64,000 bases of DNA, from contig CAZHJZ010000001.1 of assembly GCA_964532495.1 (NCBI GenBank), positions 108,890-172,889 of the forward strand. Reading direction: 5' to 3'. Below the pieces are notes generated by a model, which worked only from the letters and a program-made list of their open reading frames with translations, was not told the origin of the DNA and ran no database searches. Source of the stretch: an uncultured Candidatus Saccharibacteria bacterium (GTDB taxonomy: Bacteria; Patescibacteriota; Minisyncoccia; Phycocordibacterales; UBA9973). Positions 1,567 to 49,617 of this stretch are shown here, piece by piece. The position numbers and the translations under genes are program-made. How positions within the stretch are numbered: position 1 is the first letter of the stretch; each line of letters opens with the position of its first letter.

Positions 1567-4500
1567 CTATATTACGATGTTAATAAGACGTCCTGGAACA
1601 TAGACAACTCGTCGGATTTCTTTTCCTTCAGTCCAAGACACGATAACGGAGTCTTTGAGAGCCAGAGCTTTTACCTCTTCTTCGGGCATTTCCTTAGGAA
1701 TAGTGAGTTCTGCGCGAATCTTCCCATTAATCTGAACAACGATCTTCACTGTATCGCTTACTAGTTTCTTTGGGTCAAATTTTGGCCAGCCAGAAATATG
1801 AATGCTCTTTTTTTCTCCAAGTTCATGCCAGAGATCTTCGGTAACATGGGACGCAAACGGCGCGAGGATCTGCAAAAACATTTTAAAATCCTTTGCAGAA
1901 ATAGCTTCGGATTTTTCCATTTCATTAACACAAATCATCATTGCTGAAATCGCGGTATTGAAATTGAACCCCGCGATATCATCGCCGACTTTCTTAATAG
2001 TTTTGTGCAATACTTTTTCCGCCTCAGGAGATGTCTTCCCTTTTTCCGAAACCTTGAATTGCAAACGCCACACTTTTTCAATAAATCTGCGTGAGCCAAT
2101 GATGCCCTCCGTGCTCCATGGCAAATGCGAATCAAACGGACCGAGGAACATTTCAAAGACACGAAGAGAGTCTGCTCCGTACGTTTTGATTACATCGTCA
2201 GGATTTACAACATTCCCCCATCGCTTGGACATTTTTCGTCCATCTGCTCCGCCAATCATTCCTTGGTTGCGAAGAGCTTTGAATGGCTCAGCTGAAGGCA
2301 CGTATCCCATATCAAACAAGAACTTATGCCAGAAACGAGAATACAGCAAATGTCCTGTCGCATGCTCAGCGCCTCCCACGTACATATCGACGCCGCCATC
2401 TTTTTTACCAAACCAATATGAAAGTGATTTTTTTGAAGCAAACGCAGATTTGTTGAGAGGGTCTGCGTAACGCAAGAAATACCATGATGAACCGGCCCAG
2501 CCTGGCATTGTGTTTGTTTCATATCCCTCTTTTACCCAAGCCTTTACTCCAGCAAGCGGACTCTCGCCGTTTCCAGACGGTTCATATGAAGTGACATTTG
2601 GAAGCTTGAGCGGAAGTTCCTTTTCTTTGAGCGGAACAATCTGGCCGATTTTTGCGTCCAACTTAAGAGGAATAGGTTCGCCCCAGTATCGCTGGCGCGC
2701 AAAGATAGCGTCACGCATCTTGAATTTCGTAACCAATTTCCCGCCAACAGCTTCGGTGATCTGTACGCGAGCTTCTAGAGAATCCAATCCGCTGAATGTT
2801 CCAGAATCAATCAGCATGCCGTCGTCAGTGAAAATATAATCAGGATTTTTAATGAGATCAAGAGCGCGAGTGCCTTCGATGACAGTGAAGTAATTCTTTT
2901 CAAGTTCCGGCAATGTTTTCCAGACAACACTATGGATCGCTGCTTCTTTTTCATCTATAGGATCGCGAGACTCATCAACAAGATCAAACATCAAGAAACA
3001 AAATCGCGCATGGCGGTTCTGCTTTTTGATACGATGATAGAAGAAACTATTAAGTACGATATTAGGATTTTTGACGAGCTTAAGATTTTTATAGCCAGTC
3101 TCTTCTTGGATTTCCCGCTTTGCGGCCTCAACAAGATCCTCGCCATCTTCAACACCTCCGGTAACTAATCCATGCATAACAAAATCCTTCCAATCAGTCG
3201 TGAGGTAGGTATTGTCTTTGGGATTTCGAATGATAGCTGCAGCAGCTGTTCGCTTAATGAATGGTTCCTTTGCTCTAATGCCATCTTCTCCGCCACGGTC
3301 TTCCCAGAATTTTTCTTCAACGACTGTCTTTATCGGCAGATTGTATTTCTTTGCGAATGCATAGTCTCGCTCATCATGCGCTGGCACAGCCATCACAGCT
3401 CCTGTTCCATATCCTGCGAGCACATAGTCAGCAACCCACACAGGAACCTGTTCTCCGTTTGCAGGATTGATTGCATGAACTCCGAGCAATCTAACGCCTG
3501 TTTTTTCCTTGTCAGCATTTGTTCGCTCTTCGGGAGTTTTCTTTTTTACATCTTCGATATATTTTTCAACTTCTTTCCAGTTCAAGACATGAGGCTGGAG
3601 CTTTGAAACAACATCGCTCTCTGGAGCAATGCTGATATAGGTCACGCCAAACAATGTATCTGCGCGAGTGGTAAATACATCAACCGATTCGGAAAGTTTT
3701 ATCCATGGTAGTACTTCGTTTTTCAAACATGACATAAAGACGTTGTAGCGTTCAGCCACTGTCTGGTTGCCTTTGCACACGCCTGTTTCAGCATCTACCA
3801 ACAAACATTCTGTTGGGTATCCCTGCCAAAAACTTCCTTTAATTCGCTTTGATTGGAATTTGTATTCTCGCTGAGCAGAGGAAGTTGTCTTCGTTCCGTT
3901 TTCATCGGTATATGAAAGTCCAAAAATAAATCGTGCTTTTGAGTCACCGACTTTTTTGAGCCACTTTTGAAAAAACGCGATCACATCTTCATCGCTTGTC
4001 TTGTCGTTTCCGTTGCCGGCTTCTTTGCGCATATGTATGACGATCTGATTGTCCTTCGGCCACTTCTCAACCCAAAACACATTGTCAGTGGAAAGCGTCG
4101 GAATGCCGGTTTTCTTGAAATAGAATTCCGACTTCATTTTTGCATTTTCCAAGAAGTCTTGGCCTTCCACTAAGCTTGAGTCATCAACAGGCGGAATATC
4201 ATTCAAACTGATGAGTTCAATACCAGAATCTTTCGGGAAGCATTCTCGGAGCATTTTTACTTTTGCCTCATTTCGAGTACCGACAAGAACCTGCTTCGGA
4301 TGATTTTTTTCCGCCTTGATCTGGAATGGAATAAGCGAGCCTTCGCTTCGTCCAATCCAGTTGCGCTGAATTTCTTTGAGGTGCTCGCTCCAATCAAGCC
4401 CATCTAAATCTTGCAGCAATCGTTCTGCGTACGCAGTAATACGCATGAACCACTGGCGCATGCTTTTCTTCACAACTGGGTATCCGCCACGTTCTGAAAC

Positions 4501-5220
4501 TGGTCCGTTTGGTCCATCAACAATTTCATCGTTTGCAAGAACCGTGCCCATTTCTGGGCACCAATTCACTTCGCTGTACCCTTCGTAGCTCAAGCGATAC
4601 TGCATCAGGATGTTTTCTTTCTGAAGCTTTGAAAAACCTTTCCATTCCTTTGCTGAAAAAACTGATGTCATTTTCGCATCGCAGGCAGCATCAACGCCAG
4701 CATTTCCTTTTTTCTCAAAAATAGAAACGAGCTCAGAAATCGGTCGAGCTTTTTGTTTTGTGTTGTCATACCACGCATTGTAAATCTGAAGGAATATCCA
4801 CTGCGTCCATTTGTAGTATTCAGGATCTGTCGTATTTACTTTGCGAGACCAATCATATGAAAGGCCAATGATAGACATCTGCTTTTCAAACGTCTTCACA
4901 TTTTCATCAACTGCTTTTCGTGGATGCACTTTGTGCTGGATTGCATACTGCTCAGCTGGAAGTCCGAATGCGTCGTATCCCATTGGATGCAGCACATTGA
5001 AACCCTGCATACGCTTCATTCGAGCATAGACGTCAGAACCAATGTAGCCGCGAGGATGGCCGACGTGAAGTCCCGCTCCTGAGGGATACGGAAACATGTC
5101 CAAGACATACATCTTTTTCTTTTTAGAATTCGCCTCAGTCTTGTAGGTCTTGTCGGCCTGCCATTTCTGCTGCCAATGCTTTTCTATCGACGAGTGATCA
5201 TATGCCTTGGGTTTCTTCAT
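1567..5220 (-). CDS. leuS: leucyl-tRNA synthetase, unusually long (1217 aa), with two inserted pyrophosphohydrolase-type domains
   Basis: Class I HIGH motif (HVGHPRGY) and KMSKS (GRKMSKRWGNV). Editing-domain motifs TTRADTLFGV and GTGAVMAVPAHDERDY. Colinear with E. coli LeuRS apart from roughly 200-aa and 160-aa insertions (see findings). Confidence 0.95.
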   Translation of the reverse strand: MKKPKAYDHSSIEKHWQQKWQADKTYKTEANSKKKKMYVLDMFPYPSGAGLHVGHPRGYIGSDVYARMKRMQGFNVLHPMGYDAFGLPAEQYAIQHKVHPRKAVDENVKTFEKQMSIIGLSYDWSRKVNTTDPEYYKWTQWIFLQIYNAWYDNTKQKARPISELVSIFEKKGNAGVDAACDAKMTSVFSAKEWKGFSKLQKENILMQYRLSYEGYSEVNWCPEMGTVLANDEIVDGPNGPVSERGGYPVVKKSMRQWFMRITAYAERLLQDLDGLDWSEHLKEIQRNWIGRSEGSLIPFQIKAEKNHPKQVLVGTRNEAKVKMLRECFPKDSGIELISLNDIPPVDDSSLVEGQDFLENAKMKSEFYFKKTGIPTLSTDNVFWVEKWPKDNQIVIHMRKEAGNGNDKTSDEDVIAFFQKWLKKVGDSKARFIFGLSYTDENGTKTTSSAQREYKFQSKRIKGSFWQGYPTECLLVDAETGVCKGNQTVAERYNVFMSCLKNEVLPWIKLSESVDVFTTRADTLFGVTYISIAPESDVVSKLQPHVLNWKEVEKYIEDVKKKTPEERTNADKEKTGVRLLGVHAINPANGEQVPVWVADYVLAGYGTGAVMAVPAHDERDYAFAKKYNLPIKTVVEEKFWEDRGGEDGIRAKEPFIKRTAAAAIIRNPKDNTYLTTDWKDFVMHGLVTGGVEDGEDLVEAAKREIQEETGYKNLKLVKNPNIVLNSFFYHRIKKQNRHARFCFLMFDLVDESRDPIDEKEAAIHSVVWKTLPELEKNYFTVIEGTRALDLIKNPDYIFTDDGMLIDSGTFSGLDSLEARVQITEAVGGKLVTKFKMRDAIFARQRYWGEPIPLKLDAKIGQIVPLKEKELPLKLPNVTSYEPSGNGESPLAGVKAWVKEGYETNTMPGWAGSSWYFLRYADPLNKSAFASKKSLSYWFGKKDGGVDMYVGGAEHATGHLLYSRFWHKFLFDMGYVPSAEPFKALRNQGMIGGADGRKMSKRWGNVVNPDDVIKTYGADSLRVFEMFLGPFDSHLPWSTEGIIGSRRFIEKVWRLQFKVSEKGKTSPEAEKVLHKTIKKVGDDIAGFNFNTAISAMMICVNEMEKSEAISAKDFKMFLQILAPFASHVTEDLWHELGEKKSIHISGWPKFDPKKLVSDTVKIVVQINGKIRAELTIPKEMPEEEVKALALKDSVIVSWTEGKEIRRVVYVPGRLINIVI

Positions 5221-12990: not shown

Positions 12991-13020
12991 TAAAACCCCA
13001 CACACGGGGTTTTATTTTTT
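12991..13020 (+). terminator. intrinsic terminator after the tRNA
   Basis: aaaacccca cacacggggtttt, then a T-run. Confidence 0.7.
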
Positions 13021-13443
13021 TAATATCTTAAGACTTTCTTTTAAAGCTCTCGATTGATCCTTGGGTAAATCATTAATGGGAAACCATTCTGCTTGGGATA
13101 CTTCATGATTCTTACTTAATCTTTTTTCGTGTGTTTTACTATAAAACAAAGAAATAGTATCTTGCTTATATTCAATGGAACTTTTATAAGTACCCAATAA
13201 AATAACGTCTCCAAGGTATATATTAAGTTCTTCTTTAACTTCTCTTTTAATGGCTAACTCAGGAATCTCTCGCAGACCGCAACCACCACCAGGAAGTGTC
13301 CAATAATTTCCGGAATAAGATGTTTTAATTAGTAGGAAGTGGTTATCATTTTCGATGAGGCATTTCACTCCCAGGGTATGAGGACGGAAAACAAACCAAT
13401 AGCATTGTCGGATTGAATTAAGGAATGAGTAGATTATATTCAT
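13012..13443 (-). CDS. NUDIX hydrolase
   Basis: Nudix box GGCGLREIPELAIKREVKEELNI (Gx5Ex7REVxEE). Confidence 0.8.
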   Translation of the reverse strand: MNIIYSFLNSIRQCYWFVFRPHTLGVKCLIENDNHFLLIKTSYSGNYWTLPGGGCGLREIPELAIKREVKEELNIYLGDVILLGTYKSSIEYKQDTISLFYSKTHEKRLSKNHEVSQAEWFPINDLPKDQSRALKESLKILKK

Positions 13444-38371: not shown

Positions 38372-40672
38372 ATGAAGGAACGAATCTACACTTTCATTCG
38401 AGATCACCGAGACCGACTGATCATCGGCGTCTGTTGCGTGGTCGCACTCGGAGCAGCCACAGCAACCTTCATTCAACATAGTAAAACCTCGAACGCTGTA
38501 GAAAATGAATCCACTAAGGCTTCATATCAAGTTGCAAATGAAAGTACGATTCCCGTCCCCGATGTTCCCGTAAATATCTCATTTGAAAATATTCCCGACG
38601 ATTCATTCCTACCAGCAAAAACAGGAAAACTCATCCGCGTTAACTTAGTCACGATGGCGCTCAATCGATATGAGAATGGCCAGCTGGCCGGAGAACCAAT
38701 GCCCATTCTTGCAAAAGGAAAGCTTGGCTCATTTTGGGAAACTCCGGGCGGAAGCTACCCTATCATCGACTCGCAAGAAGAATACTATTCGGAAAAAGCC
38801 GGTGCGTTTTTCCCATATACGCTGCACCTCTTTGGAAACTACATGATCCATGGTGAGCCACATGACAAAAACAACCGCTTGGTCAAAACCACGAGCGGCG
38901 GCATTAGACTTTCCAACGAAGATGCTAAAACTATATATGTTTGGTCTGACGCCGACACTCGCGTTTCAGTCTACAGCGACAGCAAACTCAAGCCGCAGAC
39001 GCTTTCATCTGAATCTACGTACATTACGGAAACAGGAGAAACCTTGCCGAAAGTAACAGCCGAAAGTTACATTGTTGCAGATCTTGATACTGGTGAAGTG
39101 ATCCTTCACAGCAATAAAGATGTGCCTCACCCTATCGCCTCTGTTTCGAAACTCATGACGGCGCTTGTATCGACTGACACGATGAATCAATTCGAGTTCG
39201 CTACCGTTTCAAAAAAAGCTACGCAAGTATACAGCGTCAACAAATTTGCCGTCGGAGAGAAGATCGCACTTTCCAATCTCATCTACCCCCTCCTCCTTCC
39301 TTCAAGCAATGTCGCAGCAGAAATAATCGCCGAACACGCAGGACGAGACACCTTCATGTCTGAGATGAATGCTGAAGCACTAAAGCTTGGCATGACAAAA
39401 ACCCACTACGACGATCCGTCAGGACTTTCCGCAAAAAACGTTTCAACGGCATCTGATCTTTTTTTACTGACGCAAGCAATCTTCAAAGACCGGCCGTTTA
39501 TTTTTAATATTACTCTTGTCCCATCCTACAGCGCGCAAGGACACTCATGGAAAAACATCAGCCAGTTCATGAAAGTGCCTGGCTACATCGGCGGTAAAAG
39601 CGGACAGACAGACGAAGCGCGGCAATCAAACGTCGCAATCTTCAAGCTTCCCCTTTCAGAAGCCGGCACACGAAACATCGCAATCATTGTGCTTCGCTCA
39701 AACGACCGCTACACCGACACTATGAAAATCTTTAATTTCGTCAAAAGCCGCGTAGTATACGGAAGCAGCAAGAATGTCACGATCACCGACGGCAACGATC
39801 TTTCAAGCAACATCGTGCTTACCTTCGTCGGAGATATGATGCTCGATCGCGGGGTGAAGTTTTCGGTCAGAAAAAATTTTGGAGGCGACTACTCAAGGCT
39901 TTTCGCAAACATGGGTCTGATTCAGAAAAGCGATCTTGCCTTTGCAAACCTCGAAGGTCCAGTGTCAGACAAGGGCGACGACCTCCACGATCTCTATTCG
40001 TTCCGCATGGATCCGAGCGTTCTTGAAAACGTCCGTTCAGCAGGCTTTGACATCCTTTCATTTGCGAACAATCACGTTGGAGACTGGGGTCACGAAGCGT
40101 TTGATGACAGCATGGCGCGCATGGAAAATGCCGGCCTCAAATACATTGGTGCAGGAGAAACAAAAGAACAGGCCGTTCAGCCTGTCATAGAAACAATCAA
40201 AGGAACAAAATTCGGCTTCATCGGATTTACCGATGTCGGACCAGACAAGCTTGCCGCAACAAGCATGGATTCTGGTGTCCTCCTCGCAAGCGATCCAGAT
40301 TTTACAAAGATCATCGCCAATGCAAAGAAACAAGCAGATGTCCTGATCGTCTCATTCCACTGGGGCGTAGAATACAAAGAGCATACTACGCGGCAGACCG
40401 AACTAGCTAAAAAAGCAATCGATGCCGGTGCAAATATTATTATCGGTACGCACCCGCATGTCGTTCAAGATGTAGAAATATACAATGGCGGCCTTATCGC
40501 CTACTCGCTTGGAAACTTTATTTTTGATCAAACCATGTCTGCTGAAACAATGCGCGGCATGCTTCTCCAAGTTACCTTTGACGCACGCGACAAATCTCTC
40601 AAACGATATGACAAGTATACAGTCAACATTTCAAACCAGTTTCAGCCGCAAGTTCCTGAGCTGGTGAGATAG
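38372..40672 (+). CDS. tri-domain cell-wall protein: L,D-transpeptidase-like (YkuD) domain, S11 D-Ala-D-Ala carboxypeptidase domain, CapA/PgsA-type metallophosphatase domain
   Basis: YkuD-like YMIHGEP...TSGGIRL (the Cys of SHGCIR is Gly here). SxxK ASVSKLMTA, SxN LPSSNVAAE, KTG-like GGKSGQT. CapA motifs VLTFVGDMML, FANLEGP, HWGVEY, IIGTHPHVVQ. Confidence 0.7.
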   Translation: MKERIYTFIRDHRDRLIIGVCCVVALGAATATFIQHSKTSNAVENESTKASYQVANESTIPVPDVPVNISFENIPDDSFLPAKTGKLIRVNLVTMALNRYENGQLAGEPMPILAKGKLGSFWETPGGSYPIIDSQEEYYSEKAGAFFPYTLHLFGNYMIHGEPHDKNNRLVKTTSGGIRLSNEDAKTIYVWSDADTRVSVYSDSKLKPQTLSSESTYITETGETLPKVTAESYIVADLDTGEVILHSNKDVPHPIASVSKLMTALVSTDTMNQFEFATVSKKATQVYSVNKFAVGEKIALSNLIYPLLLPSSNVAAEIIAEHAGRDTFMSEMNAEALKLGMTKTHYDDPSGLSAKNVSTASDLFLLTQAIFKDRPFIFNITLVPSYSAQGHSWKNISQFMKVPGYIGGKSGQTDEARQSNVAIFKLPLSEAGTRNIAIIVLRSNDRYTDTMKIFNFVKSRVVYGSSKNVTITDGNDLSSNIVLTFVGDMMLDRGVKFSVRKNFGGDYSRLFANMGLIQKSDLAFANLEGPVSDKGDDLHDLYSFRMDPSVLENVRSAGFDILSFANNHVGDWGHEAFDDSMARMENAGLKYIGAGETKEQAVQPVIETIKGTKFGFIGFTDVGPDKLAATSMDSGVLLASDPDFTKIIANAKKQADVLIVSFHWGVEYKEHTTRQTELAKKAIDAGANIIIGTHPHVVQDVEIYNGGLIAYSLGNFIFDQTMSAETMRGMLLQVTFDARDKSLKRYDKYTVNISNQFQPQVPELVR

Positions 40673-43644: not shown

Positions 43645-45918
43645 TTATTTTGCGATCTTTACCGCTTCATCGAACTTGATTGAAAGGAGTTTTGATCCCC
43701 CATCAGCGCCGATTGTAACGCCGTAGAGAACTTTTGCTCGGGACATTGTTTCGCGATTGTGAGTAACCACAATGAGCTGTGAATAGTGAGAGAGGTTTTC
43801 GATCATATCTCCGTAGCGGCGTGAATTTGCTTCATCAAGAGCGGCGTCAGTTTCGTCTAGAACAAGGAATGGAGGCGGGTTGACCTGCGACATTGCAAAG
43901 AGGAGCGCAATAGAAGTAAGAGAACGCTCGCCACCCGAGAGCATATGCAGGTCTTTTACTTTTTTATGAGGAAGGGAGACATTGATCTCAATACCTCGCT
44001 CAAACTCGAAGTCGGCGTCATTTGCTACAGGTATTTCATCGGCTTCTTCATCGCCGTCTTTGGTTGGGCGTTTGTGTTCCACCACAATTGAAAGGAAAGC
44101 ATGTCCCCCGCCGAACATGAGCGAGAAGAAGTTGGTAAATTCCTTGTTGATCTTTTCAACACCCATCTTAAATTCGCTATCGATCTTTTGCTTGAGATCG
44201 CTGATGAGCGCGCGCAGTTCGGTAATAGCCTGATCAATATCTGAAAGCTCACGAGCGAGGAATTCGTCTCGAGATACTGTTTCTTCGTATTCTTTTACAA
44301 CTTCCGTTCCGCCTTGAGCACCGGCATCTTCGAGCTTGTATTTGATACGATCAATCTTTTTCTTGAGTTCGTCTTGCTCGGCTTTTGGAGCGATCTCTGT
44401 GCCTGGAGTAAATCGGATTGCTTCAGGCCCGACAAGGATGCTTGCCTGCTTGAGTTCGTCTTCAAATTCCATTTCTACGCGGCCGAGATTCTCTCGCTCA
44501 AGCGTAACCATGCGGAGTTCGGATTCGAGTTCCTGCTTCGCTGCCTTGAGCTCGTAGTACGCACGCTCCTGCTCTCGAATGACGCTTTCGTCGGATTTCT
44601 TTTCTGATTGGAGTTTTGTTATTTCAGTCTGAAGCTGCATTTTTGCAGTATCAAGTTCGGCGATCTCGTTTTCAACTGACTGGATGCTATCCCGCAATGT
44701 CTGGATTTGAGCTTCAACATGGGAACGGTCAACGATGGGGCCCTGGTTTTTGTCTGTCTTTCGGTAGTAAATAAATTGTTCGAATGTTTCTCGTACGCGC
44801 GTAATCGAGTCGCGGATTTCCGCAACATCATCCTGAGAAAGTAATCCTGCGAGCTCTCGATCTATGTCAGTGAACAATCCTTCAATTTCTTGAAGTGATA
44901 CTGCGATGTTTTCTGGAGTGCGCTCTTTTTCTGGAGCGTTCAGTTGTTCTTCTAAAAGTGCAATAGAACCTTCAACTCGTCCGAGTTTGCGAGTAAGTTC
45001 GGCCTGTGAGGTCAGATGCTTGTTGTATTCAGTCTGAAGACGAGCAACTTCGAGCGAAGTTCCCGCGTCTTCTACTGGAGCGTTGTGTGAAGCTTCTTTT
45101 GATTTGATGTTATTTTCTGCTTCAGTAATGCGAGTCTGAAGAGTAGTTCGCTTTTCTTCAAGGCCGTTCTTTTCATGAGTGATGAACGCAGTCTGTTTTG
45201 TGAAATAGTCTCGATACAAGCCACCGAGTTCAACGCGAAGTTCCTGAGCCTTCTCTATTTTCTCTACCTGCTTTTTCAAGAAGCCGATATGCGGAGCAAT
45301 CTCGCGGCGGAGTGACTGCACTTCTTTCATATTGGAAAGCGTCTTATCGAGCTTTCGTTCGCTCTCGCGGAGACGATACTGATACACTCGGAGGCCAAGA
45401 GCATCTTCGATCATGCCGCGACGATCCTTTGCATTTGCCGAAAGAAGCCGGTCTGCTTCACCCTGAGAAATGATGTGGTGGCCAGACGAGCCGATGTTGA
45501 CCGAAGCCACAAGTTCTAAAATATCCTTGAGACGAACTTCAGTATTATTTAACTTGTATGTGTTAGATCCATCGCTGAACACTTCGCGGGAAATAGAGAT
45601 TTCATCGAAGTCTAAGTTCAGTGCCTTCTCCCCTGTTTTTGGCAATGAAAATACTTTGCGTGAATTATCAAAGACAATGGTAACACTCGCGCGCGAAAGA
45701 GACCCCAATGCCTTGGAACCTTTGAAGATCATGTCAGCCCCGCCTTTTCCGCGGAGAGATTTGATGGATTGTTCACCGAGCACGAAACGGACGGCCTCAA
45801 CAACGTTCGACTTTCCAGAACCGTTCGGTCCAACAATCGCTGTGACGGGCGCATCGAAATCAAGCGTCGTTTTTTTTGCAAACGATTTGAAACCTGAGAG
45901 CTCGAGGCGTTTTAACAT
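43645..45918 (-). CDS. smc: SMC chromosome-condensation ATPase, short hinge-less form
   Basis: N-terminus LELSGFKSFAKKTTLDFDAPVTAIVGPNGSGKSNVVEAVRFVLGEQS. C-terminal signature LSGGERSLTSIALLFA and Walker B LVLDETDAALD. Continuous coiled coil in between with no Gly-rich hinge. rnc-smc synteny. Confidence 0.8.
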   Translation of the reverse strand: MLKRLELSGFKSFAKKTTLDFDAPVTAIVGPNGSGKSNVVEAVRFVLGEQSIKSLRGKGGADMIFKGSKALGSLSRASVTIVFDNSRKVFSLPKTGEKALNLDFDEISISREVFSDGSNTYKLNNTEVRLKDILELVASVNIGSSGHHIISQGEADRLLSANAKDRRGMIEDALGLRVYQYRLRESERKLDKTLSNMKEVQSLRREIAPHIGFLKKQVEKIEKAQELRVELGGLYRDYFTKQTAFITHEKNGLEEKRTTLQTRITEAENNIKSKEASHNAPVEDAGTSLEVARLQTEYNKHLTSQAELTRKLGRVEGSIALLEEQLNAPEKERTPENIAVSLQEIEGLFTDIDRELAGLLSQDDVAEIRDSITRVRETFEQFIYYRKTDKNQGPIVDRSHVEAQIQTLRDSIQSVENEIAELDTAKMQLQTEITKLQSEKKSDESVIREQERAYYELKAAKQELESELRMVTLERENLGRVEMEFEDELKQASILVGPEAIRFTPGTEIAPKAEQDELKKKIDRIKYKLEDAGAQGGTEVVKEYEETVSRDEFLARELSDIDQAITELRALISDLKQKIDSEFKMGVEKINKEFTNFFSLMFGGGHAFLSIVVEHKRPTKDGDEEADEIPVANDADFEFERGIEINVSLPHKKVKDLHMLSGGERSLTSIALLFAMSQVNPPPFLVLDETDAALDEANSRRYGDMIENLSHYSQLIVVTHNRETMSRAKVLYGVTIGADGGSKLLSIKFDEAVKIAK

Positions 45919-45987
45919 CAGCATATTACAAGCTCAATTTTACACTGAAAAGGTAAATATACCAACGGGGATAACTGGAATCACGTC

Positions 45988-46200: not shown

Positions 46201-46896
46201 CTAGTCAAACCACTTCTTCACCTGCACCGCAGCCTCAGCTGCTTTGGTTTCAGCTTCCTGTTTTGATTTACCTTTTCCTGATGCGATCAGTTCATTTCCG
46301 AAGTAAATACCGACGGTAAAATGCTTGTCATGATCCGGTCCGCTTTCCGCCATGACTTTGTATGAAGGAGTGACGTGCACGAATTCCTGTGCTTTTTCTT
46401 GGACCAAACTTTTTGGATCGCGCCACAATTTCTTTTTAACGATTTCATCGAGACGTCCAAAGAGCGCGCCGCTAATGAACTTTGCACAAGCATCATATCC
46501 TTGATCGAGATAGAGAGCGCCAGTAAATGATTCAAATGTATTCGCTAGGATATTCATGCGGGCTTTTCCACCATCCTTGCTCTCTCCTTTTGAAAGGAGC
46601 AAATATTCATTCATGCCGAGCTCAGATGCAACATCTGAAAGCACCACTGCGTTTACGAGCGATGAACGGTATGCAGTGAGCTCGCCTTCCGGAGCGCCTT
46701 GATACATGCGATAGAGATAGTCAGTAACAACGAGTTCCAAAACTGCATCGCCCAAAAACTCCAAACGTTCGTTGTGGGAAAGTTTGACGCCTGGATTTTC
46801 GTTGATATATGAACGGTGAATAAACGCTTGTCGGAGCAATTCTTTGTCTTTGAACGACACTTGTGTCGCCTGTTCGAACTTTGAGAAATCAATCAT
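46201..46896 (-). CDS. rnc: ribonuclease III
   Basis: ERLEFLGDAVLELVV catalytic signature plus a C-terminal dsRBD. Confidence 0.92.
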   Translation of the reverse strand: MIDFSKFEQATQVSFKDKELLRQAFIHRSYINENPGVKLSHNERLEFLGDAVLELVVTDYLYRMYQGAPEGELTAYRSSLVNAVVLSDVASELGMNEYLLLSKGESKDGGKARMNILANTFESFTGALYLDQGYDACAKFISGALFGRLDEIVKKKLWRDPKSLVQEKAQEFVHVTPSYKVMAESGPDHDKHFTVGIYFGNELIASGKGKSKQEAETKAAEAAVQVKKWFD

Positions 46897-46982: not shown

Positions 46983-47888
46983 TTAGCGCTTTCCAGTAAT
47001 GATAGGAATAGCCTTGGCGATCAATGCCGTCACACTATCATACATGTGGAGGGTTGTCACCTCTTTCAATGAGAACCATTTGCAGTCATCAAGGCCGCCT
47101 GAGGTTGACTCAAGTTTGACTGGAACGTACGAAGACTCGCCCAAATAAAAGATCACCTGCTTGCGGATCTTACCTTTTTGAGGATGCGATGCGACGTATT
47201 CATCGTCGCCAAGCTTTTCGACAATCTTCATGTCGAGGCTCATTTCTTCTTTGATCTCTCGGATCGCAGCTTGCTCCGGTGTTTCTCCTTCTTCAACGCT
47301 TCCTTTTGAAAGTGTCCAGTAGCCGAACACATCATGCACCATGGCAAGGTAAATCTCGCCCTTATCTATGGCGTATACGACTGCGCCCGCCTTGCTTTCA
47401 ATCGGGAGCTTGGTGATGTCCACGGGCTCATCTTTCATCTGTCGTTTTGACTTCTGGTCTTTGCCTGGTTCGCCAAGTTCTTTGTACACCGCACCCAATA
47501 CGCCGTTCACAAATCGTGACGAGCTGTCTGAGCCGAATGTTTTCGCAAGTTCGATCGCTTCATTAATAGAAACTTTTGGAGGAACTTCGTTGTGATCGCC
47601 AAACAAAAGCTCAGCAAGTCCCATGCGAAGAATATTTCGATCAACTGCATTGATCTTGTCGATCGGCCATTCTGGAGCAGCCTTTGCAACAATTTCATCA
47701 ATAAGATCCTTTTTGCGAATAACGTTCATAGTGAGCGTTGTCATAAACGGCAAGTCTTCGAGACCTGGAGCGAACTCTTCTGAGTTGCGCTTCAAAATAC
47801 CCTCGACATCGCTGTCTGGCTTACCTTTAAAATCCCACTCGAAGAGGGTTTGGAGAATCACTGAACGTGAAAGATGACGATTTGCCAT
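46983..47888 (-). CDS. nusB: NusB antitermination factor fused to a C-terminal NUDIX hydrolase domain
   Basis: NusB fold over residues 1-140 (ILQTLFEWDF, LRMGLAELLF). Nudix box GSVEEGETPEQAAIREIKEEMSL in the C-terminal 140 aa. Confidence 0.8.
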   Translation of the reverse strand: MANRHLSRSVILQTLFEWDFKGKPDSDVEGILKRNSEEFAPGLEDLPFMTTLTMNVIRKKDLIDEIVAKAAPEWPIDKINAVDRNILRMGLAELLFGDHNEVPPKVSINEAIELAKTFGSDSSSRFVNGVLGAVYKELGEPGKDQKSKRQMKDEPVDITKLPIESKAGAVVYAIDKGEIYLAMVHDVFGYWTLSKGSVEEGETPEQAAIREIKEEMSLDMKIVEKLGDDEYVASHPQKGKIRKQVIFYLGESSYVPVKLESTSGGLDDCKWFSLKEVTTLHMYDSVTALIAKAIPIITGKR

Positions 47889-47969
47889 AAAAGAACAATA
47901 AAGAACTAAGTATTAGTAAAAGAACAATAATGAAGGTCAATAAAGATATTGAAAACGAAAAGCAAAAGC

Positions 47970-48182
47970 TTATTTAGCCTTTGCTTTTGCCTGCTTCTTC
48001 TCAACTTTCGCAACTACATCGATAACTTTCTTGCCACGGTACATGCCAGTTGCCATGTCGACGCGGTGTCGAAGGTGAGTCGATCCAGTCTTGGAGTCAA
48101 CAGAAAGAGCTGCGCCCTTAACCTTATGGTGCGAACGGCGGTTAGCCGTGTGCGCACGTGTGTGTCTCATTCGTACTACCAT
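47970..48182 (-). CDS. rpmF: 50S ribosomal protein L32
   Basis: RRSHHKV...LSVDSKTGSTHLRHRV...YRGKKVI matches L32. Confidence 0.85.
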   Translation of the reverse strand: MVVRMRHTRAHTANRRSHHKVKGAALSVDSKTGSTHLRHRVDMATGMYRGKKVIDVVAKVEKKQAKAKAK

Positions 48183-48281: not shown

Positions 48282-48923
48282 CTACCCTTTAGCCAAGACG
48301 CTCGTGAGAAATGACTTGCGGTGGTATGGAGTGATACCATGTTTTTTGATGGCCTTGTAATGCTCAGCCGTGCCGTAGCCTTTGTGATTCTCGAAACCAT
48401 ATTCAGGGTGGACATCGGACAGTTCTTCCATCATCTGGTCGCGGAGTACTTTTGCAGCAATTGAAGCAAGAGCAATCACCGGCTCCTTTTCGTCTCCTTT
48501 GATGATCGTTTCTTGATGCGGATATTCTTCCGGCGCATGCAATCCACCGTCGAGCAGAATATGCACATGCTGCGGATCAGCCTGCAGTCTTGCCAAAGCC
48601 TCGACTAAAGCACACTGAATAGCATTTGAAATGCCGACAACATCTATGTCTTCCGCAGAAACATACGCAACAGCATATTCAAGAATGCCTTTTTCGCGCC
48701 ATTCTTCAATCTGCTCGAACCATTGTTCTCTTTTTTGAGGAGAAAGTTTTTTGGAATCTTTGATATGAGCTGGAGGGTCAGTTTCCCTATCCTTCCAGAT
48801 AAGTGCGCAAACTGCCACAGGACCGGCGATCGGGCCTCTGCCGACTTCGTCGATGCCTATTAAAAATTTTGGCGTTTGGCGTATTAACACTCCACTAAGT
48901 ATATCAAACATTTGGAACTGCAA
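48282..48923 (-). CDS. rnhB: ribonuclease HII
   Basis: GIDEVGRGPIAGPVAVCA active-site motif. Confidence 0.9.
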   Translation of the reverse strand: MQFQMFDILSGVLIRQTPKFLIGIDEVGRGPIAGPVAVCALIWKDRETDPPAHIKDSKKLSPQKREQWFEQIEEWREKGILEYAVAYVSAEDIDVVGISNAIQCALVEALARLQADPQHVHILLDGGLHAPEEYPHQETIIKGDEKEPVIALASIAAKVLRDQMMEELSDVHPEYGFENHKGYGTAEHYKAIKKHGITPYHRKSFLTSVLAKG

Positions 48924-48999: not shown

Positions 49000-49617
49000 T
49001 TAAAGATCGGTAAACATGTCTTTTGTTTTTAGATTGTGCCGGATATATTGAATGGCGTCTTCTAAATACGGGCGGTGGTTCTTAAATAATGTGAAGCACA
49101 AATTGTGCTCAAGCCAGAATGGCTCGCTGGTTTCGCCTCCCTTTGGTGCTTTGGTGATCAACTCACCACTCCATTCCGTAACAACACACCCGAATTTGGT
49201 GTGGTCCTCATTCATACGTTTAGGATCCTGAGGAGAGGTTGGCCGCGTTGCTTCAGAAAGGTAAATCACTTCGGTTGGAGTTAGGCCAGTTAAAAACTTC
49301 ATTTTGCGATCAAGAGTTTGAGCAATAGTCTCATGTTCCTCTCCTGAACCTGCAGTAAGTCTTGTTGTAGTGCCATGCGTCTCATCGGTGTGTCTCACCA
49401 ATAACACTTGGGTTTGCTTAGTTTCGATATTGAATTGAATAACTGCCGCTATCACAGCGTGAGTTAAGTCACCTTCAATTGATAGGCGTTTCAAATCAAT
49501 AGTAGTAATACCATGCTTGTTATTCCTGCTCATGTTTTTCCCTTTGGGAACCCAATGTTCATGAATATTCTTGTCTTTGGTATCGTTTTTGAGTACGTTA
49601 ATGTGTTTATTTGCCAC
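49000..49617 (-). CDS. hypothetical protein, possibly a degenerate Nudix-like fold
   Basis: Segment AGSGEEHETIAQTLDRKMKFLTGL loosely resembles a Nudix box. Weak. Confidence 0.35.
   Translation of the reverse strand: MANKHINVLKNDTKDKNIHEHWVPKGKNMSRNNKHGITTIDLKRLSIEGDLTHAVIAAVIQFNIETKQTQVLLVRHTDETHGTTTRLTAGSGEEHETIAQTLDRKMKFLTGLTPTEVIYLSEATRPTSPQDPKRMNEDHTKFGCVVTEWSGELITKAPKGGETSEPFWLEHNLCFTLFKNHRPYLEDAIQYIRHNLKTKDMFTDL

Follow-up and report, generated by a model that had tools for sequence, protein, structure and literature searches.

NusB is usually regarded as a small, single-purpose boxA-binding factor, a stand-alone protein of ~140 amino acids (aa). A precedent for joining its fold to an enzyme is RsmB/Sun, the 16S rRNA m5C methyltransferase, in which a NusB-fold RNA-binding module sits N-terminal to an rRNA-acting enzyme. 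Nudix domains, for their part, are found on the regulatory proteins NrtR, Bacteroides AraR and vertebrate TRPM2 (the NUDT9-H domain), where binding is kept and the catalytic box has decayed. Here we describe nusB-nudix, a gene on the minus strand (46983-47888) of a 64-kb window, the whole stretch of DNA analysed, from contig CAZHJZ010000001.1, that joins a complete NusB to a Nudix domain resembling the small diadenosine polyphosphate (ApnA) hydrolases. The fusion is orthologous and ancient within Parcubacteria, and its Nudix domain is under purifying selection even where the catalytic residues have degenerated.

The open reading frame (ORF) of 301 aa plus stop runs through 46983-47888 free of interruption in the ORF listing and holds both Pfam domains in one frame: PF01029 NusB (aa 7-136, E 8.4e-33, 114 bits, profile positions 3-133 of 133) and PF00293 NUDIX (aa 172-279, E 7.4e-16, 58.8 bits against a gathering score of 21.1). 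The first-pass annotation, made from the letters of the sequence, had read the ORF as a complete N-terminal NusB followed by a full Nudix domain and had proposed a hidden Markov model search for the two; both are matched above threshold, and both are carried by all of the best 120 homologues. The NusB domain (aa 1-138, seven helices; 47475-47888, minus strand) spans PF01029 in full and passes the TIGR01951 nusB equivalog at 120.3 bits against a cut-off of 88.35, covering model positions 2-130 of 131 (NCBIfam). It aligns over its full length with Thermotoga maritima NusB (1tzt, E 8.8e-18) and with the Aquifex, Mycobacterium tuberculosis and Escherichia coli structures, and Foldseek superimposes it on M. 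tuberculosis NusB (1eyv) with a template modelling (TM) score of 0.82-0.83.

R8 and F126 never vary among the 76 family members, R4 is nearly invariant, and R4, Q13, N128 and V130-G132 are conserved at ≥90%. In the alignment of PDB sequences, F126 is the equivalent of F122 of Aquifex and E. coli NusB, which stacks on BoxA U8 and whose F122D replacement is defective in vivo (PMC3177189). For this lineage, the gene appears to be the orthologue of NusB, sharing with canonical NusB the equivalog score, the all-helical fold, R4/R8 and the α7 Phe, and nothing in these residues suggests that NusB function has been abandoned. What sets it apart from the stand-alone protein is the addition, right after the BoxA-binding helix, of a linker that is conserved and a Nudix domain of 140 aa. 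RsmB models also match the NusB half (NCBIfam); in RsmB, however, the NusB-like domain is a paralogue and its partner a methyltransferase, whereas the fusion passes the NusB equivalog, has a Nudix partner and shows no methyltransferase domain in Pfam.

The Nudix domain (aa 163-299; 46992-47402, minus strand) is complete and carries, as quoted in the first-pass annotation, the box GSVEEGETPEQAAIREIKEEMSL (aa 196-218; 47235-47303, minus strand), located by regular expression and translation. This box fits GX5EX7REUXEEXGU except for a Ser in place of the penultimate Gly, with G196, E202, R210, E211, E214 and E215 all present. The best PDB sequence matches, both end to end, are 3i7u (Aquifex aeolicus aq_158, "Ap4A hydrolase", 5.9e-9) and 1vc8 (Thermus thermophilus Ndx1, 7e-8; phmmer). 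The same two proteins provide the best fold matches at Foldseek ranks 1-3, 3i7u with a TM score of 0.89, a root-mean-square deviation of 2.2 Å and 26% identity and 1vc8 with a TM score of 0.85, followed by the NrtR Nudix domain, mycobacterial MutT1/Rv2985, Chlamydia CT771 and the Caenorhabditis elegans and human Ap4A hydrolases. E215 aligns with aq_158 E51 and with Ndx1 E50, the residue changed in the inactive E50Q mutant (1vc9). WTLSKG, Y231 and Y283 align with aq_158 K31, Y66 and Y115; K195 is the Lys of the W-x-x-P-K-G motif, whose Pro is replaced by Ser in the clade of the window and is present in many relatives.

Work on the human and Plasmodium Ap4A hydrolases assigns binding of the P1 phosphate to the PKG Lys together with a loop Tyr, and stacking of the adenine to a conserved Tyr plus a second Tyr/Phe (PMC4734340). 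By this alignment, K195, Y231 and Y283 are predicted phosphate-binding and base-stacking residues of a pocket. The Nudix half appears to derive from the small ApnA-hydrolase family (aq_158/Ndx1/NUDT2 type), and its placement in that group, or in the "Omnivore" group, is one of resemblance. With aq_158 (3I7U/3I7V) and the Ap6A hydrolase Ndx1 it shares, in the alignment, W-x-x-[PS]-K-G, the full REx2EE box, the loop Tyr and the aromatic residue before the C-terminal helix; it differs in that those proteins are free-standing and only ~26-27% identical and that many fused orthologues lack the catalytic Glu. aq_158, described in 2026 as an "Omnivore RNA pyrophosphatase", hydrolyses Ap4A-Ap6A and in vitro converts RNA 5' tri- and diphosphates and m7Gp3, Ap4, nicotinamide adenine dinucleotide (NAD), flavin adenine dinucleotide (FAD) and sugar caps to 5' monophosphate, and its E51A mutant is dead (PMC13145063).

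Kinship with RppH and NudC, the Nudix enzymes cited in the first-pass annotation, finds no backing in the profile scores. The Nudix half falls below the cut-off of every RppH and NudC model in NCBIfam (best RppH model NF001936, 32.8 bits against 118; other RppH models, 20-24 against 116-259; NudC NF001299, 26.4 against 158), and no specific NCBIfam Nudix family reaches its cut-off. What it shares with RppH and NudC is the Nudix fold and, conceivably, the substrate class of RNA 5' ends; the model cut-offs are widely missed, and the fusion has neither the zinc motif nor the N-terminal domain specific to NudC.

AlphaFold2, run for the window protein on a 76-sequence family alignment, predicts two confident domains, aa 2-138 (seven helices) and aa 163-299 (α/β/α), with a mean predicted local distance difference test (pLDDT) score of 89.5. 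The pLDDT exceeds 90 in the Nudix domain and in most of the NusB helices and drops below 50 at aa 141-153, and the predicted TM score (pTM) of the whole is 0.55. No fixed relative orientation of the two domains is predicted (pTM 0.55-0.57), and neither Pfam nor AlphaFold2 shows a domain beyond NusB, linker and Nudix. The linker, GEPGKDQKSKRQMKDEPVDITKLP (aa 139-162; 47403-47474, minus strand), has low pLDDT and a conserved start: G139, E140, P141, G142 and K143 are kept in 195-199 of 199 relatives at ≥55% identity. Its length across the NusB-Nudix family is 7-41 aa, with a median of 21. The earlier description of a roughly 20-aa Lys-rich linker holds as to lysine, of which there are five, and does not extend to a strongly basic character, since five Lys and one Arg face five acidic residues for a net charge of about +1. 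An internal start at M151, which would yield a separate Nudix protein, is ruled out, position 151 being K in 102 of the 199 relatives and M in 26.

The GEPxK motif is also present in some Nudix-less NusB proteins of the candidate phyla radiation (CPR). Other NusB proteins, probably from CPR (P0160, P0191, P0202, P0220, P0229, P0246, P0265, P0267 and P0147), bear different C-terminal extensions after a GEPxK-like motif, namely low-complexity tails rich in Lys and Glu that span 30-200 aa and, once, a region with weak likeness to cytidylyltransferases. Within this radiation, added modules seem to gather preferentially at the C-terminus of NusB.

The same fusion recurs in related genomes, a check the first-pass annotation had put forward, with at least 597 confirmed loci in a scan that took one genome for each GTDB species. 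Their labels are Nomurabacteria, Kaiserbacteria, Yonathbacteria, Lloydbacteria, Paceibacterota/Paceibacteria, Minisyncoccia and Parcubacteria. The best 120 matches among 5.8 billion proteins measure 297-321 aa at 63-92% identity, all with PF01029 and PF00293; where names are given among them, these are NusB ("N utilization substance protein B" or "transcription antitermination factor NusB"), and the three NCBI-named homologues are Candidatus Pacebacteria. A HMMER scan of 1.84 billion representatives of 50%-identity clusters returned ~70 full-length clusters reaching down to 32% identity. Because the Nudix signature has in many orthologues decayed below the Pfam thresholds, these are annotated only as NusB and the architecture is under-reported in databases.

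Gene order was compared across 80 fetched related loci, with neighbours located by tblastn. Downstream of nusB-nudix, rnc (RNase III; 46201-46896, minus strand; Ribonucleas_3_3 and dsrm) adjoins in all 80 loci and is followed by smc (43645-45924, minus strand) in 72. Upstream, rpmF (ribosomal protein L32; 47970-48182, minus strand) adjoins in 77 loci, with PF01783 found in L081 and L083, and is preceded by rnhB (RNase HII; 48282-48923, minus strand; PF01351, E 2.7e-40) in 29 of the 80 loci and in L081-L083. The order dnaE/rnhB - rpmF - nusB-X - rnc - smc is kept in members only 32-46% identical. Since both the homologous fusion and its gene order are fixed over such deep divergence, the fusion is orthologous and ancient within Parcubacteria, syntenic as rpmF - nusB-nudix - rnc - smc. 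One locus at 57% identity, L063 (JBLHIK010000014.1), is labelled as a Flavobacteriaceae bacterium metagenome-assembled genome and has the Parcubacteria-type arrangement thrS/rpmF - nusB-nudix - rnc - smc; the contig is probably mis-binned and not a fusion outside CPR.

Comparison across the family reveals that K195, Y231, K243, W271 and Y283, the residues aligned with the substrate pocket, are essentially invariant and outlast the catalytic ones. Among the 199 relatives at ≥55% identity, D186, W191, Y231, K243, W271 and Y283 are each present in all 199, whereas E211 is kept in 170, E214 in 167 and E215 in 190. The difference widens in 49 distant 50%-cluster representatives, in which K195 is retained in 47, W191 in 45 and Y283 in all 49, against 10 for E211, 27 for R210, 30 for E202 and 36 for E215. 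E211 or E215 is replaced in 34 of the 78 GTDB species loci with an extractable coding sequence (e.g., GERKEE, GEREEK and SERSEK), two of the replacements being conservative E to D changes. In the clade of the window protein, none of the six box residues is lost. In a quick neighbour-joining tree built from just the NusB domain, members with an intact box lie scattered among degenerate ones, and re-invention of a complete box is implausible, so the distribution implies an active ancestor and repeated catalytic losses.

The degenerate Nudix domain is under purifying selection. Nei-Gojobori ratios of nonsynonymous to synonymous substitution rates (dN/dS) in the Nudix-like region of pairs in which both members are degenerate are 0.046 (L059/L074), 0.072 (L028/L032), 0.067 (L032/L044), 0.095 (L059/L080) and 0.21 (L032/L054), comparable to those of intact pairs; with dS at about 1-2, near saturation, these values are rough, though well under 1. 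P0224, the most degenerate member, reads DLQINK at the box positions and lacks a Pfam NUDIX match. Modelled from an alignment restricted to degenerate members, it is nonetheless predicted to adopt a Nudix fold, with the non-catalytic NrtR Nudix domain and aq_158 as top fold matches and AraR also listed. As the catalytic Glu is widely lost while purifying selection persists, hydrolysis, and decapping with it, cannot be what keeps the fusion across the family.

A regulatory protein carrying a Nudix domain that keeps binding while its box decays is the arrangement of NrtR, AraR and TRPM2, and NUDT9-H of TRPM2 was ancestrally active and later became inactive (PMC6461439). Those proteins bind ADP-ribose or arabinose and have a DNA-binding domain or an ion channel as partner. 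In the fusion, by contrast, the Nudix domain is joined to an RNA-binding elongation factor, its pocket is of the ApnA-hydrolase type, and the window copy has an intact box. Pfam finds no winged-helix DNA-binding domain of the NrtR/AraR type in the window protein, and the likeness to these regulators is one of function that concerns the degenerate orthologues.

On this evidence we favour a reading, for which belief and doubt are nearly balanced in our judgement, of the Nudix domain as a tethered nucleoside-polyphosphate-binding module beside the antitermination complex that in this genome may also be hydrolytic. On its flexible tether, the domain would bind a purine nucleoside-polyphosphate moiety next to that complex. 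Ligand binding fits best because the pocket-aligned residues outlast the catalytic ones under purifying selection. A tethered module with reach is weakly favoured over an allosteric sensor since no inter-domain contacts are predicted; a sensor with fixed domain packing is unsupported by AlphaFold2, given its low pTM. Hydrolysis of the bound ligand is probable as well in this genome's lineage, in which none of the catalytic residues has been lost.

Two ligands are conceivable. We lean slightly, and tentatively, towards a 5' terminus of the ppp/Np4 type on the nascent, boxA-bearing transcript (an rRNA leader) bound by the NusB half; for such a terminus, conversion to monophosphate would license leader turnover. 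This version draws on the NusB half binding the transcript, with the tether starting right after the BoxA-binding helix, on the gene always adjoining rnc, whose product RNase III processes pre-rRNA, and on aq_158, the closest characterised homologue, acting on RNA 5' ends. The other candidate, a free ApnA-type nucleotide, is possible although we would not expect it; it is suggested by a pocket of the ApnA-hydrolase type, by an acidic Nudix domain with a nearly neutral linker and by the lineage's leucyl-tRNA synthetase (LeuRS) carrying a Nudix domain, aminoacyl-tRNA synthetases being a main source of ApnA (PMC4734340).

Several points weigh against the tethered-module reading, besides the quickly built tree and the near-saturated dS noted above. 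All of its functional statements are inferred, and the pocket assignment rests on alignment and literature and not on a ligand-bound model. Substrate preference of Nudix enzymes is unreadable at ~26% identity, a caveat of the aq_158 paper itself (PMC13145063). The Nudix domain has an isoelectric point of 5.2 and the linker is almost uncharged, a composition that gives no pointer to RNA binding. The boxA consensus has four matches in the 64-kb window against 9.5 expected by chance, giving no signal, and the window contains no rRNA operon or rRNA leader, Rfam returning a single tRNA. A catalytic Glu that is lost so often speaks against 5'-end hydrolysis being a family-wide role, and the LeuRS Nudix insert and other housekeeping domains fit equally well with domains added without any coupling.

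The alternative that survives best, unlikely as we judge it, is a domain of the latter kind: an ordinary ApnA- or NTP-sanitising hydrolase riding on an essential, well-expressed gene in a streamlined genome, uncoupled from NusB. The lineage's LeuRS likewise bears NUDIX and, in some relatives, Ham1/ITPase, ASCH, HAD or GNAT domains; AlphaFold2 predicts no contact between the two halves, and the window protein's box is intact. Under such housekeeping, however, the catalytic Glu should be the best conserved residue, yet it is replaced in close to half of the species-level relatives examined above and in most of the distant clusters, and the domain persists under purifying selection despite that loss. 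A fusion partner and a gene order both fixed over very deep divergence also speak against a module with no tie to NusB.

The LeuRS gene of the window (1567-5220, minus strand; 1,217 aa) has its NUDIX insert at aa 657-773 (Pfam E 1.1e-13), immediately behind the editing domain; the box of this insert, GGVEDGEDLVEAAKREIQEETGY, is intact and lies at about nucleotide 3159. Most of the best 120 LeuRS homologues (about 990-1230 aa, Parcubacteria) contain PF00293, and some add Ham1/ITPase (PF01725), ASCH, HAD or GNAT. The insertion is thus lineage-wide, and the earlier remark on a lineage habit of attaching Nudix modules to core machinery stands. A 170-aa query had matched only three stand-alone Nudix proteins, which made the insert look unique; the search with full-length LeuRS shows it to be widespread. 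Recent paralogy of the NusB-linked and LeuRS-linked Nudix domains is ruled out, as they are 34% identical and only in the box region.

A second alternative, which we consider doubtful, casts the Nudix domain as a protein-protein adaptor that docks, for example, to RNA polymerase, S10, NusA/NusG, RNase III or a factor of ribosome assembly and uses the conserved residues as an interface instead of a ligand pocket. Non-enzymatic roles in protein interaction are known in the Nudix clan (PMC5389931), the catalytic residues are dispensable in most members, and the strongly conserved GEPGK motif of the linker resembles a short linear motif. An adaptor accounts poorly, though, for the most conserved positions aligning with the phosphate-binding and base-stacking residues of ApnA hydrolases, and it has no need of the complete box that many lineages keep, that of the window included.

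It seems similarly improbable that a dedicated co-transcriptional decapping or RppH-like enzyme is the primary conserved function, which is the strong form of what the first-pass annotation had proposed. A domain tethered to an RNA-bound elongation factor, encoded next to rnc and having as its closest characterised homologue an enzyme that deprotects RNA 5' ends, is what such a role would call for. Its RppH and NudC equivalog scores nevertheless lie far under the cut-offs, and the natural E211/E215 changes mimic, in a large share of orthologues, the dead mutants aq_158 E51A and Ndx1 E50Q. As a conserved function, decapping would hold at most for the intact-box lineages. The mechanism put forward in that annotation, co-transcriptional 5'-end processing or antitermination dependent on a nucleotide signal, is plausible as a hypothesis. 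That sequencing or assembly error fused adjacent nusB and nudix genes, the refutation the first-pass annotation had itself named, has practically no probability left, being excluded by the homologous fusion with its fixed gene order, by the continuous ~300-aa ORF in hundreds of independent assemblies from NCBI, JGI, ENA and Logan and by the conserved linker sequence.

The surroundings of nusB-nudix are ordinary Parcubacteria housekeeping DNA, with rpoB/rpoC, sigma-70, dnaG, dnaE, gyrB, S2, EF-Ts, thrS and RNase R; no S10 gene is found in the window. A 205-aa ORF (49000-49617, minus strand) matches Pfam NUDIX at E 2.3e-7 with a degenerate box, GSGEEHETIAQTLDRKMKFLTGL, that lacks RE and EE, and tblastn finds no counterpart in the 80 related loci. 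Ahead of it lies a promoter-like site matching the sigma-70 consensus at 12 of 12 positions with a TG extension (49753-49726, minus strand), which may drive degenerate-Nudix ORF - rnhB - rpmF - nusB-nudix - rnc - smc. Terminator-like hairpins follow rnhB and rpmF. The rpmF hairpin (47958-47988, minus strand), 13 pairs and then a T-run, overlaps the rpmF 3' end ~70 nucleotides upstream of the nusB-nudix start, and hairpins or repeats occupy the same rpmF-nusB position in several relatives. The spacers of L014, L032, L040 and L044 contain short tandem or interspersed repeats, e.g., CTAGAACCTAGAA or GGCACTAGGCACTAG, resembling repetitive extragenic palindromic elements. Across the rpmF-nusB spacers of about 65 loci, no common boxA-like or attenuator motif emerges, only variable hairpins and repeats.

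Elsewhere in the window, a stand-alone 143-aa Nudix ORF (13012-13443, minus strand) has an intact box, GGCGLREIPELAIKREVKEELNI, and weak MutT/RppH-like NCBIfam matches far below the cut-offs, bringing the 64-kb total to three intact Nudix boxes and one degenerate Nudix ORF. A 766-aa ORF (38372-40672, plus strand) combines YkuD (L,D-transpeptidase), Peptidase_S11 (D-Ala-D-Ala carboxypeptidase) and PGA_cap in an unusual three-way fusion of cell-wall enzymes.

A full-text search of 8 million papers found no published description of a NusB-Nudix protein; the sequences are already in databases, named simply NusB, and the fusion as such appears undescribed. In Parcubacteria/Paceibacteria, on the count of at least 597 species genomes, NusB appears to have been replaced by a two-domain protein. 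Repeated natural inactivation of its Nudix catalytic site under selection supplies a ready comparative series of putatively active and putatively binding-only orthologues. It is a long shot that the Nudix module lets NusB read the nucleoside-polyphosphate chemistry at the antitermination complex and, in lineages with an intact box, also erase it. If so, either the 5' ppp/Np4N/NAD-type end of the transcript whose boxA the protein binds would be coupled to antitermination on rRNA, to turnover of the leader and to processing by RNase III, or an ApnA alarmone signal from aminoacyl-tRNA synthetases would be fed directly into rRNA transcription elongation. To our knowledge, such a regulatory input into the Nus machinery is undescribed in bacteria. 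The fusion hints at an unstudied link between rRNA transcription and nucleotide or RNA 5'-end chemistry, and should the module act on the nascent transcript or sense ApnA, it would add a new layer of control on rRNA synthesis in organisms with minimal regulatory repertoires.

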